The notes under the pieces were generated by a model that was not told the DNA's origin, did not search any database, and worked only from the letters and a program-made list of their open reading frames with translations. From the NCBI GenBank assembly GCA_965208215.1, contig CBDBOH010000003.1, positions 1,470,880 to 1,534,879 on the forward strand: DNA of 64,000 nt. Direction: 5' to 3'. The translations under genes and the position numbers were made by a program. Shown here one piece after another: positions 2,552 to 54,929 of this stretch (position 1 is its first letter; the number at the start of each line of letters is the position of its first letter). The stretch is from Chloroflexota bacterium (GTDB lineage: Bacteria; Chloroflexota; UBA11872).

Positions 2552-3169
2552 ATGGCCGAGATCCGGCGGGCCGGCATCGTGACGTCGGAGCCGGTGCTGG
2601 AGGCCATCGAGCGGGTCGAGCGCCGCCACTTTGTCAGGCCCGATGACGAGCGCGAGGCGTATGACAACGCGCCGCTGCCGATCGGGCGGGGGCAGACCAT
2701 TTCGCAGCCGCTGGTGGTGGCGCTGATGTCCGAGGCCCTGGCCATTGGGTCGTGCGACCGGGTGCTGGAGATCGGGACGGGGTCGGGCTACCAGGCGGCG
2801 GTGCTGGCGGAGATGGGCGCGCAGGTTTACAGCGTGGAGATCATCCCCGCACTCTCGGACTGGGCGGCGGCGAACCTGCGAAGCGCCGGGTATGGCGGCG
2901 TTGCGCTGCGCACCGACGATGGGTTCTTCGGCTGGGAGGAGCACGCGCCCTACGACGCCATCATCGTCACGGCAGCGGCCAGCAAGATTCCGCGGCCGCT
3001 GATCCCCCAGCTGCGGGTCGGTGGCCGGCTGGTCGTTCCGGTGGGTTCGAACGCCTGGGATCAGACGCTGTGGGTGGTGGAGCGGACCGAGGAGGGTGAG
3101 ACGTCAACCAACCTCGGCCCGGTGCGCTTCGTGCCGCTGACCGGCGACGGGCAAAGCGCCGCCGGCTGA
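2552..3169 (+). CDS. pcm: protein-L-isoaspartate O-methyltransferase
   Basis: GTISQPLVVALMSEAL, VLEIGTGSGYQAAVLAEMG and DAIIVTAAASKIP motifs. ATG 2552 is preceded by GAGAAG SD; alternative upstream ATG at 2486. Listed ORF 2309..3169 is longer because of an in-frame GTG. Confidence 0.8.
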   Translation: MAEIRRAGIVTSEPVLEAIERVERRHFVRPDDEREAYDNAPLPIGRGQTISQPLVVALMSEALAIGSCDRVLEIGTGSGYQAAVLAEMGAQVYSVEIIPALSDWAAANLRSAGYGGVALRTDDGFFGWEEHAPYDAIIVTAAASKIPRPLIPQLRVGGRLVVPVGSNAWDQTLWVVERTEEGETSTNLGPVRFVPLTGDGQSAAG

Positions 3170-4657: not shown

Positions 4658-4915
4658 ATGCGAACGACAATCTCGCTCGACGATCAGCTGGCCCGGCAAG
4701 TGCGTCGTGCGGCAGCAGCCCGCGACATGAGCGTGAGCGCCTTTATTTCCAAGACGCTGGACGACGCGCTGAAACGCCACGACCCGTCTGAGCCGCCGCC
4801 TTTCCGCCTGATAACCGTGCGTGGCGTTCGACCCCGTCCCGGAGTCGATCTGGACCGGCCGAGGGCGCTCGATGCTCGGGAGGACGAGGCCAGGTTCACG
4901 CGCGGGCGTGGGTGA
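4658..4915 (+). CDS. vapB: ribbon-helix-helix/VapB-type antitoxin
   Basis: 85-aa ORF, MRTTISLDDQLARQVRRAAAARDMSVSAFISKTLDDAL (RHH/CopG-like). Immediately precedes a PIN gene. AT-rich leader with GTTATGC direct repeats upstream. Confidence 0.6.
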   Translation: MRTTISLDDQLARQVRRAAAARDMSVSAFISKTLDDALKRHDPSEPPPFRLITVRGVRPRPGVDLDRPRALDAREDEARFTRGRG

Positions 4916-4921
4916 CGCCAG

Positions 4922-5365
4922 TTGCTGCTTCCCGACGTCAATGTCCTGATTTACGCGCACATCGAGGACTCGACTCCCGACCACGCTGAGTACGCGAGCT
5001 GGATCACCCGTCTGGCGACAGGGCCCGAACCGTTCGCCCTTTCCGTTCTGGTCTTGTCCGGATTCATTCGCGTCGTGACCAATCCCCGAGTCTTCAGCCC
5101 GTCGTCGACTCTCGATCAGTCATTCGGGTTCGTCACGGCACTCGTGGAACGCCCAACCGCGCGGATTGTGGGCCCGGGTCCAGATCATCTGGAAATCTTC
5201 GAACGACTGTGCCGTGCGTCCGGCGCCACCGGAAAGCTGGTCGCCGACGCTCAGCACGCGGCGGTTGCCGTGGAACATGGGTGCACTATGGTGACGACCG
5301 ATTCGGATTTCAGCCGATTCCCCGGACTGCGATGGAAGCATCCACTGGGCCCAGACGGGGTCTAG
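4922..5365 (+). CDS. vapC: PIN-domain ribonuclease toxin, VapC family
   Basis: MLLPDVNVLIYAH...TTDSDF motifs; TTG start 7 nt after vapB stop. Confidence 0.75.
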   Translation: MLLPDVNVLIYAHIEDSTPDHAEYASWITRLATGPEPFALSVLVLSGFIRVVTNPRVFSPSSTLDQSFGFVTALVERPTARIVGPGPDHLEIFERLCRASGATGKLVADAQHAAVAVEHGCTMVTTDSDFSRFPGLRWKHPLGPDGV

Positions 5366-48158: not shown

Positions 48159-48532
48159 TGGGCGGATCTCTTGGGGGGTCGGCGACGAAAGTCGGGGCTG
48201 AGAGGGGGCGGCAGAACGGTTCCGGGGACGCCGGGTGCGCGGGCGCGCCGAGGGGGTGGGGCGGAAGCGTCTCAACCGGAAGTAGCCGGCATGAAACCGG
48301 CTCTTACGCAAGGTCAGGAACGAGCGGCGACGCTCGGTGACGGAAGGAGCGAGCAGGCGGAGGAGGCGGGCGAGCACGATGGTTCCGGGGGATGGACTGG
48401 GATAGGATGCCTCTAGTGTACACGATATGGTTACGAAGAGCAAGGGTGATGGGAGGAGGCGTGCGAGGAGCCGGGGAGGAGAGGACGCGAGGATGGCGAG
48501 GCCAGGAAGAAGCGGGGTGAGCGCGGCCTGGG

Positions 48533-48660
48533 ATGTGTTCAGTCGATTGGGGCGATGTGTTCAGTTTTTGGCCGAATGTGTTCAGTTTCCGGCCCGATGT
48601 GTTCACATTTCGGCCGGATGTGTTCACTTCTGAGGGTCAGGTGTTCAGTTTCGGGCGAGG
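48533..48660. repeat. array of 6 direct repeats with 21-bp period (consensus ATGTGTTCAGTTTYSGGCCGR)
   Basis: Units start at 48534, 48555, 48576, 48597, 48618 and 48639. Confidence 0.8.
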
Positions 48661-48741
48661 CGCGTCCCCCCTCACGGCCCCTTCGACAAGCTCAGGGCAG
48701 GCTCTTCGGCACGCTCAGGACAGGTCTCCGGGGACGCCGGG

Positions 48742-48868
48742 ATGTGTCCACTCTGTCGGGCCGATGTGTCCAGTTTTTGGCCGGATGTGTCCACTTTTCG
48801 GCCGAATGTGTCCAGTTTCGGGGGCAATGTGTCCACTTTGGCGGGGGAGGTGTCCAGTTCTCGGCGGC
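48742..48868. repeat. second array of 6 direct repeats with 21-bp period (consensus ATGTGTCCASTTTYSGGCCGR)
   Basis: Units start at 48743, 48764, 48785, 48806, 48827 and 48848. Begins 209 bp after array 1, and a similar ~130-bp tail follows each array. Confidence 0.8.
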
Positions 48869-49060
48869 GGGCGTGCCCTCGGTTCAGGGGCGACGGGATG
48901 GGACGGCCGCGGCCGGGGATCGGGCGCGGAAGGAAGTCGAGCCCCCCATTCGACAGACTCAGGGCTGGCTCTCGGCGGCCCCCGGGATGACAGAGAGGGC
49001 GGTTGCGGGGTTGAACAAGGATGGGCGGTGGTACTTGCCAAGGAGATTACGGTGGATTTG

Positions 49061-49083
49061 GCCCAATAAGGGCTATATTGGGC
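49061..49083. promoter_or_regulatory. palindromic operator-like site GCCCAATA-agggcta-TATTGGGC upstream of the antitoxin gene
   Basis: Perfect 8-bp inverted repeat with 7-bp spacer, 25 nt upstream of ATG 49108. Confidence 0.5.
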
Positions 49084-49107
49084 TGGATGAGTTCGAAAGG
49101 ACTTCGT

Positions 49108-49440
49108 ATGCGTGGGCGTGAGGCGGTGACGGAGCGGGTGGCGGCGTCGCAGGCGAAGCGGGATTGGAGCAAGGTGATTAACCGCGCCTTCAGCGGCGAG
49201 GTCCGGTTTGTGGTGGAGAAGCATGGGACGCCGGTGGCGGGGATCGTTTCGGCCGACGACATTGAACGGCTGGCCGCGCTGGATGCGCGATGGGCCGAGG
49301 GACACGAAATCCTGAAGCGGTTCGGTCGGGCGTTTCGTGACCAGACAGCGGAAGAGATCGAGGAAGCCGTAGCTCAAGCGGTCGCCGAAGTGCGAGCCGA
49401 GAATCGAAGCGGGGCGGAGCTTCAACCTGTGCCTGAGTGA
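49108..49440 (+). CDS. Phd/YefM-like type II antitoxin
   Basis: MRGREAVTERVAASQAKRDWSKVINRAFSGEVRFVVEKHGTPVAGIVSADDIERL. SD AAAGGA upstream; stop overlaps the PIN gene start. Confidence 0.6.
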   Translation: MRGREAVTERVAASQAKRDWSKVINRAFSGEVRFVVEKHGTPVAGIVSADDIERLAALDARWAEGHEILKRFGRAFRDQTAEEIEEAVAQAVAEVRAENRSGAELQPVPE

Positions 49441-49883
49441 TTCGCGTCGTCGCGGACACAAATGTCCTGGCGTCGGGGCTGGCCGGATATGACGCTTTGG
49501 ATGGTCCGGCTGCGTATCTCCTGCGGGCGTGGCAGCAACGGCGCTTTGATCTCGTAGCGTCCGGCCCAATCTTCGAAGAACTCGAACGGACGCTTGCGAA
49601 GCCGTACTTCACGCAGCGCCTCGGGCCAACGGGCGCTTGGCGAGCGTTGGATTTTGTTCGCGAGGGCGCCCTATTGGTGATCGAGTTGGCCGACGTCCGG
49701 GGCGTGGCCACGACGCCGGCTGACGACTTGATCCTGGCTACCGCAGTCGCGGGAAGGGCGAGTCATCTCGTCACGGGCGATCGTCAGCTTCGCAACCTGG
49801 GCGAGTACCAGGGCGTGAGGGTTGTTGGACCGCGTGCGTTTGTGGACTGGCTGGATGCGGGGATGCCTGGGGATGTGGGGTGA
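49437..49883 (+). CDS. PIN-domain toxin (VapC-like)
   Basis: MIRVVADTNVLASG...DLILATAVAGRASHLVTGD. Confidence 0.7.
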   Translation: MIRVVADTNVLASGLAGYDALDGPAAYLLRAWQQRRFDLVASGPIFEELERTLAKPYFTQRLGPTGAWRALDFVREGALLVIELADVRGVATTPADDLILATAVAGRASHLVTGDRQLRNLGEYQGVRVVGPRAFVDWLDAGMPGDVG

Positions 49884-50117
49884 ACTGGCGGCGGGGATAG
49901 GGGCGGTGGCAGTGACCGCAGTGCAAGCAATTCGATCAGTGCCTGCGTTGATGGCAGTGCGGGCAAAGCTGGAAGCGACGACGCTGGTAGCGAGGCACCG
50001 GCGGATAAGGACAAGTCATGGGCATAGGCCCGAAGGCGGAGATGGATCGACGGCTGGGACGCATTACCGCTGCTGCCAAGGCCCAGGCTGCGCGCAGCCT
50101 GGGCCACCGGGCGGGCG

Positions 50118-50501
50118 TTATGTGGGCGGGTATGTCGGGGTATCGTCAGACACGACCACGGAGCCGGTCCGTCCGTCATAGACCATCTGGGCGCTCAGGA
50201 GAAAGTCGCGCCCGAGCAAGACGCCAAAGTCGTAGCCCAACTCGGCTAGCCGCGTGCCTCCAAACCGACCATGCTTGCCGAGATTCAAGGCGGGCACCGT
50301 CAAGTTCGCCAAGTACTCCGGCGTCTCGTACGCGCCGGCTGCCGATCCGTAGGAACGTATATCCACGATTTGAAGTCTCGCGTCGAACGCGAGCTTGACG
50401 TCGATCGCGCTTTCGCGAGCGCCGGTGTCAATCAGGGCCAGCGAGGAATGGGAGCGCTCCGTGTCCGCGGGACGTCCGATCGCGACCCGAATGATCGGAC
50501 C
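50118..50501 (-). CDS. retropepsin-like (clan AA) aspartic protease; stop-to-stop ORF with no canonical start codon before the DTGA active site
   Basis: GPIIRVAIGRPADTERSHSSLALIDTGARESAIDVKLAFDARLQIVDIRSYGSAAGAYETPEYLANLTVPALNLGKHGRFGGTRLAELGYDFGVLLGRDFLLSAQMVYDGRTGSVVV. TAA lies immediately upstream. The only ATG/GTG (50366) lies after the catalytic DTGA. Confidence 0.4.
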   Translation of the reverse strand, partial: GPIIRVAIGRPADTERSHSSLALIDTGARESAIDVKLAFDARLQIVDIRSYGSAAGAYETPEYLANLTVPALNLGKHGRFGGTRLAELGYDFGVLLGRDFLLSAQMVYDGRTGSVVVSDDTPTYPPT

Positions 50502-50554
50502 TTACGCCCACAGACCCGACGGGGACCCGGAGATACCACACTCGACGGACGGCA

Positions 50555-50881
50555 CTAGAGCAACCCGAACGCCAGCGCTGGCGGCAGCTGGCGAACGCGC
50601 TCATCTCCCACCTCTCGAATGTGGTACGGCCCGCCGCCAAACCTGTCAATTGCGGCCTCCGCTGCGTCTTCGAAGGTTTCGTAGATGTCCACCAGCTCCC
50701 GGTTGCGCACGATCACCCACTTGCCCAGATGTTCCGCCTCGAGTTCGGCCCGCATTTCGTCATACGCCGCAATCTCGCGCCGAATGGCGTCCATTGCCGC
50801 CTGGTCAACGTACTTCTCGTGTTCCACCGGGCTGCCGGGATCCATGGCCACCCTTTCAGCGCGCTCGTGTCCCAGGTACAC
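50555..50881 (-). CDS. small hypothetical protein (DUF5678-like C-terminal region) upstream of the protease
   Basis: ...HLGKWVIVRNRELVDIYETFEDAAEAAIDRFGGGPYHIREVG; possible internal start at M13. Confidence 0.4.
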   Translation of the reverse strand: MYLGHERAERVAMDPGSPVEHEKYVDQAAMDAIRREIAAYDEMRAELEAEHLGKWVIVRNRELVDIYETFEDAAEAAIDRFGGGPYHIREVGDERVRQLPPALAFGLL

Positions 50882-51136
50882 AAGAACCTACGGTGCCAAG
50901 AGCGTCCTGACAAAGTTGGGCATCACGACCGATTCACTGAACGCCGGAGGGCCATGGATGTCATCGGACGCGTGGTCGAGGCAGGTGAGGAGCACGGTGA
51001 TCGACGCGGCGACACGGCGGAAGGATCGGCGCAACTCGGAGTGGGGCACTACCGCGGCGTAGGTCTCCGTATACTCGAGTCCGGCGCCCATCGATTCAGT
51101 TGGCGCCGATCCCTTATCGCCGGGAGAAGTGGACTC

Positions 51137-51490
51137 TTGCCGACCTACGAATACGAGTGTTCGGACTGTGGCAATCGGGTTGAGGTTTTTCAGAGCTTCA
51201 GCGACGCGCCGCTGACGAGTTGCGAGGCATGCGGGGGCAAGCTGAAGAAGGTATTTCACCCGGCCGGGATCATCTTCAAGGGCAGCGGCTGGTACGCGAC
51301 CGACAGCCGATCCGCGTCGGAACGGAAGAAGTTCAAGGACGACGGCAAGCCGCCGGAGAAGTCCGACGCCAAGCCGGTCAAGTCCGACGGGGCCAAGAGC
51401 AACGGGAGCGCGACCGACGGCGGGGCCAAGGCCGGGGCGTCGGCGGGCGGGTCCGACAAGGCCTCAGGCTCCGGCGGCAGTTCCAACTAG
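51137..51490 (+). CDS. FmdB-family zinc-ribbon protein
   Basis: TTG start with GGGAGAAG SD: M/LPTYEYECSDCGNRVEVFQSFSDAPLTSCEACGGKLKKVF...; Gly/Ser/Lys-rich tail. Confidence 0.65.
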   Translation: MPTYEYECSDCGNRVEVFQSFSDAPLTSCEACGGKLKKVFHPAGIIFKGSGWYATDSRSASERKKFKDDGKPPEKSDAKPVKSDGAKSNGSATDGGAKAGASAGGSDKASGSGGSSN

Positions 51491-51523
51491 CCGGTCCTCC
51501 GGTCGCATTCTGGAGCTTCGGTA

Positions 51524-51991
51524 ATGCGAGCGGTCGTCCAGCGCGTCACGAAGGCCTCGGTTCAGATCGACGGTTGCGAGCACGCCTCGATCGGTCCCGG
51601 ACTCGTGGTGCTGGCCGGGGTGGCTCGCGGCGACGAGGATGCGGACGTGACCTACCTGGCCGACAAAGTCGCGAACCTGCGCGTGCTGGCCGACGATGCG
51701 GGGCGGATGAACCTGTCGGTTCTGGACACCGGCGGCGAGGTATTGCTGGTGTCGCAGTTCACATTGATCGCCGACACACGGAAGGGGCGGCGTCCGAGCT
51801 TTATTGGCGCGGAGGCGCCCGATCGGGCCGCCAAGCTTATCGACGACCTGGGAGAGGCACTGACGGCTCGCGGCGTACCGGTTCGGAGCGGCGTATTCCA
51901 GGCCGAGATGGAGGTGGCGCTGGTGAACGCCGGACCGGTGACGATCATCGTCGACAGCCACGACCGACGCACGCCGCGCCGGCAGGCGTAG
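51524..51991 (+). CDS. dtd: D-aminoacyl-tRNA deacylase
   Basis: MRAVVQRVTKASVQIDG...SQFTLIADTRKGRRPSF...NAGPVTI. Confidence 0.85.
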   Translation: MRAVVQRVTKASVQIDGCEHASIGPGLVVLAGVARGDEDADVTYLADKVANLRVLADDAGRMNLSVLDTGGEVLLVSQFTLIADTRKGRRPSFIGAEAPDRAAKLIDDLGEALTARGVPVRSGVFQAEMEVALVNAGPVTIIVDSHDRRTPRRQA

Positions 51992-51994
51992 ACC

Positions 51995-53344
51995 TTGTCG
52001 ATGTCCGGCTCAGCGGTTCAGTCGAGCGAGCGCGGCGTGCGGATCGTGCGCGGGGCCGAGCAGGTGCGGCGGACGCTGCTGGCGCGGTCGCCCGAACTGG
52101 TGACGATCGACGAGTCCGCGGTTGCGGCGGCATCGAGCGTGTTCGGCGAGACGCTCACGCCTCAGGCGTTCGTGGAGCGCGTCATTCGCGAGGTTCGGGA
52201 CGAGGGCGATGACGCCGTGCGGCGGATTGCCGCGGCGCTGGGCGACCACGTCGGGACGACCTTCGAGATCGGGCCAGCGGAGCTTGCCGACGCGAGCCGC
52301 CGGATCGATCCGGAGCTGCGAGGGGACATCGAGCTGGCGGCGGAGCGGATTCGCGACTACCACGAGCGCGAGATGCCAGCCGGGTTCGACCTTCCAGCGT
52401 TGGGCGCCGGCCAGCAGTGGATCCCGGTGGACCGCGCGGGTCTGCACGTGCCAGGACAGGCGGCGCCGCTGGTTTCGAGCCTGCTGATGGCCGCCGTGCC
52501 GGCCCGCGTGGCGGGCGTGGGCGAGACCGTGGTCACGACGCCGGTGCGGGCGGAGGGCATTGCCCCGGCACTTGCGGCGGCGGCCGAAGTGGCGGGGGTG
52601 GACCGGGTGTTTGGTCTGGGCGGCGCCCAGGCAATCGCGGCGCTGGCGCTGGGTACGGCGAGCGTGCCGCGTTGCGATGTGATCGTGGCTCCAGGCAACG
52701 CGTGGGTGATGCTGGCGACGCGGGCGCTCTACGGGGTGGTGGGCGTGGACCTGTTGCCCGGCCCGACCGAGACGCTGGTCATTGCCGATGCCGCGGCCGA
52801 CGCCGCGGAAGTGGCCGCCGACCTGATTGCGCAGGCGGAGCACGGAGGGCCGGCCAGTCCAATTGCCCTGACATCCGACCCAGGCATCGCAGCCGAGGTG
52901 GCGCGCGAGGTCGAGATACAGCTCGCCACGCTCCCGCGTGCGGACGTGGCCTGGGACAGTTTCGAGCAGCGCGGCGGCGTTGGTGTCGTGGAGGACCTGG
53001 CCCAGGCGGTCGAACTATCCAATGAGTACGGGCCGGAGCACCTGTGCCTGCTGGTGGAGGATCCGGAGGCGCTGCTGCCGCTGGTGCGGCATGCCGGCGG
53101 GGTGTTCCTGGGCAGCGCCTCGCCCGAGGTGCTGGGCGATTACGTGGCGGGGCCAAGCCACATCATGCCGACCGGCGGTACGGCCCGTTTCGCCTCGCCG
53201 GTTGGCGTGCGGTCGTTCCTGAAGACGGTGTCGGTCGTGCGCCTTTCGGCGGACCGAGCGGCGGCATTGGCCCCGGCGGCGGCGCGCCTGGCGCGGGCCG
53301 AGGGTCTGGAGGGCCACGCCAGGGCCGCCGAACGCCGGGCTTAG
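51995..53344 (+). CDS. hisD: histidinol dehydrogenase
   Basis: ...LHVPGQAAPLVSSLLMAAVPARVAGV...AQAEHG... Confidence 0.85.
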   Translation: MSMSGSAVQSSERGVRIVRGAEQVRRTLLARSPELVTIDESAVAAASSVFGETLTPQAFVERVIREVRDEGDDAVRRIAAALGDHVGTTFEIGPAELADASRRIDPELRGDIELAAERIRDYHEREMPAGFDLPALGAGQQWIPVDRAGLHVPGQAAPLVSSLLMAAVPARVAGVGETVVTTPVRAEGIAPALAAAAEVAGVDRVFGLGGAQAIAALALGTASVPRCDVIVAPGNAWVMLATRALYGVVGVDLLPGPTETLVIADAAADAAEVAADLIAQAEHGGPASPIALTSDPGIAAEVAREVEIQLATLPRADVAWDSFEQRGGVGVVEDLAQAVELSNEYGPEHLCLLVEDPEALLPLVRHAGGVFLGSASPEVLGDYVAGPSHIMPTGGTARFASPVGVRSFLKTVSVVRLSADRAAALAPAAARLARAEGLEGHARAAERRA

Positions 53345-53386
53345 ACGTGACTACAATGCCGCGATCCCTAGCGAGGCGAGATTTGC

Positions 53387-53986
53387 ATGGCTGAACGCCG
53401 CGCCAGCGTTGCGCGCGCCACGTCCGAGACCAAGGTTGAGGCGACCGTCGCCATTGACGGCGCCGGCGACTTCGGCGGCGGCACCGGCGTTGGATTCCTG
53501 GATCACATGCTGGCGCAGCTGGCTCGCCACGGCCTGTTCGACATCGAGGTGAACGCGGTGGGCGACCTTCACATCGACGCACACCACACCGCCGAAGACG
53601 TTGCGATCGTGCTTGGCCGGGCGTTCAGCGACGCACTGGGCGACCGTCAGGGCATCCAGCGCATGGGAGATGCCACGGTGCCGATGGACGAGGCGCTGGC
53701 GCAGGTGGCGGTCGACTTGGCCGGACGCGATTACGCCGCCTTCGACGGCGAGTTCAAGCAGGATCGCATCGGGGACCTGGAAACCAGCCTGCTGCCGCAC
53801 ATCGTCGGGTCCCTGGCGCGGCACATGGGCGCGGCGATTCACGTGCGCGTGCTGGCCGGCGACGACGATCACCACAAGGCCGAAGCCGTGTTCAAGGCGC
53901 TTGCGAGGGCCCTGGACCAAGCCACGGCGCTCGATCCGCGCCGGGCCGGCGCGGTGCCCAGCACCAAGGGCACGCTTACCGACTGA
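53387..53986 (+). CDS. hisB: imidazoleglycerol-phosphate dehydratase
   Basis: ARATSETKVEATVAIDG...GFLDHMLAQLARHGLFDIEVNAVGDLHIDAHHTAEDVAIVLG. Confidence 0.9.
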   Translation: MAERRASVARATSETKVEATVAIDGAGDFGGGTGVGFLDHMLAQLARHGLFDIEVNAVGDLHIDAHHTAEDVAIVLGRAFSDALGDRQGIQRMGDATVPMDEALAQVAVDLAGRDYAAFDGEFKQDRIGDLETSLLPHIVGSLARHMGAAIHVRVLAGDDDHHKAEAVFKALARALDQATALDPRRAGAVPSTKGTLTD

Positions 53987-53987
53987 C

Positions 53988-54755
53988 GTGGGCGATCAGG
54001 CCGCTGGTCGCCGCCTGCGTCTCGACCACCTGCTGGTGCGCCGCGGCCTGGCGCGGAGCCGTAGCTCAGCCCGGCAACTGGTCAGGGATGGCGAGGTGCT
54101 CCTGGCCGGCCACGTTGAGGAGCGGCCGGGGCGGCGCGTCAGCGTCGACGCGCAGGTCGTGCTGAGGGGGCAAGCACCTGAGTACGTGAGCCGGGGCGGA
54201 CGAAAGCTGGCCGCGGCCCTCGCGCACTTCGGGCTTGGAGTGGACGGGAGCATCGCCCTGGACGTGGGGGCATCGACCGGAGGGTTTACGGACTGCCTTC
54301 TGCAAGCGGGCGCGCGGCGTGTCACGGCGGTGGACGTGGGTCGTGATCAACTCGCGCCGAGTTTGCGGGGCGACGCCAGGGTCCGGGTGCTGGAGTCCAC
54401 CGACGCGCGTGACCTTCCGCCGCTCGATCCGTCGCCCGACGTCGTGGTGGTCGACGTTTCCTTTGTTCGACTCCGCGATGTCTTGCCGGCGGTGCTGGCC
54501 GCGACGCCGGACGCTCGCTGGGCCCTGGTTCTGCTCAAGCCGCAGTTCGAGCTGCCGGGACGCCGCGTGCCGCGGGACGGAGTCATCAAGGAGCCGAGCG
54601 ATCGGAATGCGGTGCTGCTCGACTTCATTGCCTGGGCGGCGCGACGGGGAATATGCGTGGCCGCTTCCGAGGCCAGCGCGCTTTCCGGGGGCGAGGGCAA
54701 CCAGGAGACCTTCGTGCTGCTGCGGGGACCGGTGGTGGGTCACTTTGAGCTTTGA
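53988..54755 (+). CDS. tlyA: TlyA-family 16S/23S rRNA (cytidine-2'-O)-methyltransferase / hemolysin
   Basis: GTG start 1 nt after hisB stop. RLDHLLVRRGLARSRSSARQLVRDGEVL (S4 domain) ...LDVGASTGGFTDCLLQAGA (FtsJ-like MTase). Confidence 0.8.
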   Translation: MGDQAAGRRLRLDHLLVRRGLARSRSSARQLVRDGEVLLAGHVEERPGRRVSVDAQVVLRGQAPEYVSRGGRKLAAALAHFGLGVDGSIALDVGASTGGFTDCLLQAGARRVTAVDVGRDQLAPSLRGDARVRVLESTDARDLPPLDPSPDVVVVDVSFVRLRDVLPAVLAATPDARWALVLLKPQFELPGRRVPRDGVIKEPSDRNAVLLDFIAWAARRGICVAASEASALSGGEGNQETFVLLRGPVVGHFEL

Positions 54756-54780
54756 GTGCCCGGAAGACCCCTCACCCCAA

Positions 54781-54800
54781 CCCTCTCCCCCAGGAGAGGG
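54781..54800 (+). terminator. GC-rich hairpin CCCTCTCC-ccca-GGAGAGGG downstream of tlyA (no U-tract)
   Basis: 8-bp perfect stem 25 nt after the tlyA stop; a second run cccctcacccc precedes it. Confidence 0.35.
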
Positions 54801-54929
54801 AGAAAGACGGCGGCCCGCTCCAGAGTGAAGGGAACGTCCAAAGTGTCCCGCTACCCGGGGGCCGTGGCCGAATCAGCGGGGCAGAGGCAGCGACTATGAT
54901 GGATGCGACGGCGATGACGTGAGTGGCTG

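Follow-up and report, generated by a model that had tools for sequence, protein, structure and literature searches.

Retropepsin-like aspartic proteases occur in prokaryotes as single-domain proteins (PF13975, gag-asp_proteas; PF13650, Asp_protease_2; TIGR03698, clan_AA_DTGF; TIGR02281). APRc of Rickettsia conorii, one of the bacterial enzymes of this kind, is reportedly embedded in the membrane. Apart from APRc (PDB 5c9f; PMC4140852), the Rlo enzymes of Pseudomonas aeruginosa are bacterial retropepsin-like aspartic proteases, and they are described as secreted (PMC11957051). Small retropepsin proteins also accompany some archaeal type III CRISPR loci (PMC3973734). In the literature searched for retropepsins together with toxin-antitoxin systems no aspartic-protease toxin was found, and the literature searched held nothing relevant on the function of DUF5678 (PF18929), the family to which the gene next to the protease studied here bears a resemblance.

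Here we analysed a protease gene and its small upstream partner gene in a 64,000-nt stretch of a Chloroflexota contig (CBDBOH010000003.1), the whole of which is called the window. The protease resembles the prokaryotic single-domain enzymes in its D-T-G-A motif, its LLGRDFL segment, its predicted retropepsin-like fold and its length of about 145 aa, which makes up one lobe, so that the protein is presumably a homodimer. It differs from them by a conserved N-terminal MPxxECGF extension of its own and by an obligatory upstream partner. APRc was its top structural match (Foldseek E = 8e-5, TM about 0.5), but sequence identity to APRc and the Rlo enzymes is 12-16%, the protease of the window is encoded with a small partner gene, and neither a signal peptide nor a membrane segment is apparent by eye in its sequence. 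Judging from these sequence features, the protease would act as a cytoplasmic homodimer. The family also matched component B of the PADLOC system PDC-M08 (PDC-M08B) weakly (E = 0.01-0.07), but the matches are not significant and the partner matched no PADLOC model; nothing on PDC-M08 was found in the literature searched, and the PHROGs and PADLOC profile libraries returned nothing significant. The pair of partner and protease is not described in the literature searched.

A GTG-started protease gene interrupted at codon 18

The locus had been described in the initial annotation as a complete clan-AA protease domain in a minus-strand stop-to-stop frame without a canonical start codon. Translation of the sequence agreed with the frame itself, which comprises 127 codons plus TAA and reads GPIIRVAIGRPADTERSHSSLALIDTGA...TYPPT before the stop. 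It contains LIDTGA, with the catalytic Asp as residue 25, a TAA lies immediately upstream of it, and ATG, GTG and TTG are absent between that TAA and the active site, the earliest of them being a GTG at 50366. The claims of completeness and of a missing start did not hold, because the 17 conserved N-terminal residues are encoded just upstream of the TAA. An in-frame GTG (50555-50553), 17 codons 5' of the TAA, opens the protease gene, and the codons from this GTG to the TAA encode MPSVECGISGSPSGLWA, the conserved N-terminus of the family. The whole frame thus reads V/M-PSVECGISGSPSGLWA-stop-GPIIRV..., and the frame that runs uninterrupted from start to stop in the family is broken in the window at codon 18. 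The GTG overlaps the TAG of the partner gene by one base (TAGTG), the G of GTG being the final base of TAG, and the protease's own terminator is TAA, the same as the premature stop. The features of the locus are collected in Table 1.

Table 1 Features of the partner-protease locus, in positions of the window
Feature	Position	Strand	Basis
Two-gene cassette, homologous (80-91% identity) across loci with unrelated upstream flanks	50113..50932	-	blastn of L007, L029, L030 and L031 against the window
Full retropepsin-like protease gene, 145 codons + TAA, with in-frame TAA at codon 18	50118..50555	-	translation; N-terminus shared with the 145-aa homologues P0001-P0006; L001 differs by one base
Premature stop TAA at codon 18; C-to-T at 50504; relatives have CAA (Gln) or CGA (Arg)	50502..50504	-	sole nucleotide difference from L001 in 438 nt
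Stop-to-stop frame of the initial annotation, protease residues 19-145, without a canonical start before the active site	50118..50501	-	sequence
Catalytic Asp-Thr-Gly, D43-T44-G45 in full-length numbering; GAC ACC GGC	50421..50429	-	conserved in the 109-member family
Codons 1-17, conserved N-terminal segment severed from the catalytic domain	50505..50555	-	conservation in 109 members; AlphaFold2 model
Partner gene, 96-aa DUF5678-like small protein; TAG 50557-50555 overlaps the protease GTG by one base	50555..50845	-	homologue directly upstream of the protease in loci keeping the protease 5' end
Candidate promoter TTGTCA-17 nt-TAGGTT	50885..50913	-	conservation only; invariant in seven related loci with otherwise different flanks

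When the 127-aa frame was used as query, six clusters of 145-aa proteins with 86-100% identity were retrieved; they all start with MPSVECG(I/V)SG and have Q or R at residue 18 in place of the window's stop. In six close relatives codon 18 is CAA or CGA, each of them one C-to-T transition away from a stop. The protein P0001 has Q18 and is identical to the window protease at the remaining 144 residues. Its contig, L001, aligned without gaps to window 54785-50117 (97.3% identity over 4669 nt), and the two share the gene order tlyA-like, IGPD, hisD, dtd, zinc-ribbon gene, 67-aa ORF, 96-aa gene and protease. The flanking his, dtd and tlyA genes diverge by 2.6-4.2%, and over the 438-nt protease gene a single difference was found, C in L001 and T in the window at 50504 (CAA to TAA). 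A stop at codon 18 was found in no related locus examined, and the window's own allele was not found in other public assemblies by exact look-up of the partner protein and two metagenome_contigs pattern scans. With a dN/dS of 0.14 (L001 versus L010), intact copies of the protease are under purifying selection.

Divergence from L001 was not uniform along the alignment. It is 0-1.4% over the zinc-ribbon gene, the 67-aa ORF, the partner and the protease (window 50117-51490) and reaches the flanking-gene values in dtd, hisD, IGPD and tlyA (51500-54785). The lower divergence on the cassette side suggests, from the sequence comparison, a recent exchange or sweep of that side.

The position of the start and the assignment of the protease were examined across the family. 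In 22 related loci, which come from Chloroflexota/Dehalococcoidia, Magnetococcales, and Gamma- and Alphaproteobacteria MAGs, the protease frames mostly begin with ATG, GTG or TTG at the conserved MPxxECGF. The homologues are 145 aa long with this beginning, and of 109 aligned members 106 share the start column of the GTG-initiated protein. Within the N-terminal segment C6 is conserved in 93, G7 in 100 and L15 in all 109 members. The catalytic hydrophobic-hydrophobic-D-T/S-G-A motif is present as ALIDTGA at residues 40-46 (D43 in 108, T44 in 106 and G45 in 109 of the 109), and the second motif (hydrophobic-G-R-D/N) and the C-terminal strand are present as LLGRDFL followed by MVYDGRTG, with G115 invariant and R116 nearly invariant. 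Matches by E-value were obtained for 104 members with PF13975, 100 with PF13650, 41 with RVP and 99 with TIGR03698; the window sequence itself stays below the curated cut-offs (19.7 versus 28.2 bits for PF13975, 18.3 versus 24.3 for PF13650, 16 versus 57.35 for TIGR03698). The AlphaFold2 model of the protease (mean pLDDT 90, pTM 0.83) places a strand at residues 3-5 and a helix at 12-18, with a mean pLDDT of 88 for residues 1-10 and 86 for residues 11-20. Its top Foldseek PDB matches were APRc, the RVP domains of Ddi1, and the FIV, EIAV and foamy-virus proteases, all at TM about 0.5. Profile matches and fold comparison both agree with the clan-AA assignment of the initial annotation, and the protease is by sequence and model a single-domain retropepsin-like aspartic protease. 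Because the N-terminal segment is conserved and modelled as an integral part of the fold, the stop-to-stop frame is an incomplete protein. The family is large, with 3159 cluster representatives at E <= 1e-3 and 811 at E <= 1e-10 in a 50%-identity library, and the members examined come from MAGs of several bacterial phyla. In one member, P0188, the C-terminus is extended and finishes with a SEC-C-like motif, CPCGSGKKYKNCC.

Disruption of the same gene was also observed in close relatives of the window. In L007 a 126-nt MITE with the inverted ends GGGAGAC(C/G)TTTGC is inserted near protease codon 30 (L007:4775-4901), and in L029 a deletion of about 44 nt (an alignment gap of about 68 columns) removes the DTG motif. 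The protease of L030 contains MITE-related sequence (about 2980-3020 of that locus) and indels, that of L031 multiple indels, and in L002-L006 the gene is truncated at its 5' end beside the same MITE (L002, about 4860-4985) and a gene that looks tRNA-like by eye. Some contigs of the disrupted relatives carry low coverage labels (1x-3x), so not every one of these lesions is certain. Despite the broken protease, L007, L029, L030 and L031 each retain an intact partner gene, called at 96-106 aa, for which dN/dS values of about 0.1-0.16 were obtained in L007 and L031. With at least five independent natural disruptions in close relatives, inactivation of the protease is evidently frequent. The window itself holds, near 54757-54815, a 45-59-nt fragment of the same MITE-like element of about 126 nt.

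These results make it highly probable that the window protease is a nonsense allele, arising from a single C-to-T change at 50504 (CAA, Gln18, to TAA) in an otherwise canonically started gene, the second of a two-gene operon. Translation from the normal GTG would end after 17 residues with release of a short peptide. Because the 127 codons beyond the stop offer no usable start ahead of the catalytic Asp, they most likely yield no active enzyme. What looked like a 'start-less ORF' is thus the 3' part left over from a gene that was inactivated very recently.

Alternative readings of the interrupted frame

The closeness of L001 also bears on the reliability of the allele. Since nothing except the stop separates the two protease genes, with no second lesion or nonsynonymous change, the T at 50504 could stem from an error in base calling or in the consensus, or represent a minority variant that became fixed in the assembly, in which case the real codon 18 would be CAA and the 145-aa protease intact. 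Its absence from every other public contig searched fits this reading as well. However, substitution errors are uncommon in an assembled consensus, C-to-T is the commonest spontaneous mutation, and the same gene has been broken repeatedly and naturally in close relatives, and we consider an artefact unlikely. A very recent inactivation of the protease is preferred, a base-call error being the less likely reading. The initial annotation had raised a 1-nt indel around 50500-50510; none was found, the alignment with L001 being gap-free and the lesion a substitution, and the indel was rejected. Frameshift fusion to the upstream gene was likewise rejected for this clade, in which a GTG of its own opens the protease and the stop of the partner lies in a different frame; fused partner-protease genes were seen in a distant subclade (L011, P0193). 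Reassignment of TAA as a sense codon was rejected too, with the same gene terminating in TAA and the neighbouring genes reading normally.

An N-terminally truncated protease might instead be made by non-canonical re-initiation at ATC or ATT (codons 21-22) after the TAA. The mutation did create TAAGG, a partial Shine-Dalgarno match 4-7 nt upstream of these codons (TAAGGTCCGATCATT), and ATT and ATC support low-level initiation in bacteria; but these codons typically initiate at least 100-fold less efficiently than ATG, such a start is used by no relative, and the product would lack residues 1-20, including the nearly invariant C6, G7 and L15 and the modelled strand and helix, which leaves this reading very improbable. 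The non-canonical initiation put forward in the initial annotation is not needed, as relatives start at MPxxECGF with ordinary codons, and the translational coupling that it suggested suits the real GTG, by the TAGTG overlap, but not the truncated frame. Programmed readthrough or recoding of the TAA, as at retroviral gag-pro junctions, would explain an in-frame stop between a short leader and a retropepsin domain. The conserved stop codon and stimulatory context of a recoding site are missing, however: related loci have CAA or CGA at this codon, the RNA around the TAA folds no better than shuffled sequence (z = -0.27), no tRNA gene or Rfam family was found in the window, and TAA is also the true terminator of the gene, so that readthrough deserves almost no credence. 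Just as far-fetched is a retroelement (gag-pro) relic inserted in the chromosome, another proposal of the initial annotation, to which the weak matches to PF13975 (gag-asp_proteas) and the small upstream gene lend some colour. Against it, no reverse transcriptase, integrase or LTR lies nearby, the neighbours in the window (his genes, dtd, the zinc-ribbon gene and a Phd/PIN pair) and in relatives being housekeeping and toxin-antitoxin genes; the upstream protein is DUF5678-like rather than Gag-like; and the same two-gene layout recurs in this large family across several phyla. Among the four explanations offered in the initial annotation, a decaying pseudogene comes closest to the nonsense allele. 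It had also been foreseen that orthologues might have an ordinary start that is mutated here, which would make a plain pseudogene; this is essentially what was seen, except that the start itself is retained as GTG and the lesion lies at codon 18.

The partner gene and the conserved pair

The upstream gene is a small gene ending in TAG, as had been annotated, but rather than 108 aa it more likely encodes 96 aa from the ATG at 50845. This ATG is preceded by an invariant AAGGGTGG, whereas the GTG of the 108-aa version (50881) would sit only four bases past the -10 element of the candidate promoter. A promoter/terminator consensus scan flagged nothing, the candidate promoter included. The resemblance of the partner to DUF5678, which had also been pointed out, is real but weak: the match has an E-value of 0.004 and scores 17.3 bits, below the gathering cut-off of 23.2. 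DUF5678 is the only Pfam family matched, and 10 of 19 partner family members match it at E <= 0.01 (best 6.7e-5). The core of the partner, GKWV-(beta hairpin)-helix, aligns with profile positions 1-34 of 49, but the partner adds a long N-terminal helix and a conserved, hydrophobic C-terminal tail, LPAS-x-x-Y/F (LPPALAFGLL in the window, LPASVLYRP elsewhere), and by sequence it appears to be a distant DUF5678 relative. Further upstream, a 67-aa ORF (window 50888-51091, minus strand) is called in L001. It matches no Pfam family, reaches into the conserved cassette with only about its last 45 nt, and is probably no genuine module gene.

The pairing of a DUF5678-type protein with the protease, mentioned in the initial annotation, was confirmed. 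A partner homologue lies directly upstream of the protease in 22 of the 22 related loci that keep the protease 5' end, and in the window; in L021 and L022 it is a divergent form. Where both genes were read, they overlap by 1-14 nt; the pair is conserved as small genes of the same orientation in which the stop of the first overlaps the start of the second. The two are fused in frame in L011 (L011:2722-3438) and P0193. In the closely related L012 (L012:2442-3426) they are one base out of frame, and ATG, GTG and TTG are lacking where the protease normally starts; L012, rather than the window, is the better place to suspect unusual expression or a long-read indel error.

The homology of the window to L007, L029, L030 and L031 is confined to the cassette, about 820 bp. 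The upstream flanks differ, with his and dtd genes in the window and N6-methyltransferase genes in L007, L030 and L032, and in several loci, for example L008, the pair sits among housekeeping genes. Immediately downstream of the protease operon and convergent with it, the window carries a Phd/YefM antitoxin gene (PF02604, 31.6 bits) and a PIN_3 toxin gene (PF13470, E = 8e-15) with a 4-nt overlap (49021-49883, plus strand); this pair has no counterpart in the blastn matches of L007 and L029-L031 to the window. Between the convergent operons, at 50080-50105 and 13 nt past the protease stop, there is a perfect 26-nt palindrome, GGCCCAGGCTGCGCGCAGCCTGGGCC; it has no T-tract and is outside the conserved cassette. 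Two arrays of 21-nt tandem repeats (unit GGATGTGTYCASTTTTCGGCC) were seen at window 48531-48626 and 48740-48865. Similar repeats in L007, L029, L030, L031 and L002 precede a gene of 482-484 aa with an N-terminal transposase-type HTH, which is absent from the window, and window 48092-48175 matches DNA 3' of that gene.

A possible toxin-antitoxin-like role for the pair

A toxin-antitoxin-like or defence-like module would be in keeping with how the two genes are ordered, with their cassette-like distribution and fusions, and with the protease having been selectively lost more than once, and by analogy the conserved pair seems compatible with a module of the toxin-antitoxin type. As in type II toxin-antitoxin modules, of which the neighbouring Phd/YefM-PIN pair is an example, a small first gene overlaps the second in a cassette of about 0.8 kb, the upstream flanks vary and the taxonomic distribution is patchy, several loci have other toxin-antitoxin or restriction-modification genes next to the pair, and the second gene has been lost repeatedly while the first was retained. 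In the partner no DNA-binding domain of the kind that antitoxins may carry for autoregulation was recognisable, and the housekeeping surroundings of the pair in several loci, such as L008, speak against a module of this type. We tentatively suggest, as a possibility that these analogies make worth stating but still rather doubtful, that the DUF5678-like and retropepsin-like pair may form an undescribed toxin-antitoxin- or defence-type module with the protease as the harmful effector.

In such a module the partner would physically interact with the protease, and its conserved hydrophobic/aromatic C-terminal tail may bind the protease dimer as a substrate or pseudo-substrate. The small partner would restrain the protease or be its trigger substrate, and loss of the protease would then be tolerated or favoured. 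The nonsense, MITE, deletion and indel alleles would be repeated escapes from a costly effector, leaving a retained 'orphan antitoxin'.

For the locus itself, the outcome is a correction of the annotation, which should give a disrupted 145-codon gene and not an ORF of 82 or 127 codons. A supposed case of non-canonical initiation is replaced by a one-base nonsense allele, and the finding as originally posed matters little. Of moderate interest is a side result, a large protease family with a constant DUF5678-like gene immediately upstream, which constitutes an uncharacterised module. The repeated selective inactivation of the protease in this module provides a testable hypothesis on the role that small cytosolic bacterial retropepsins may have.
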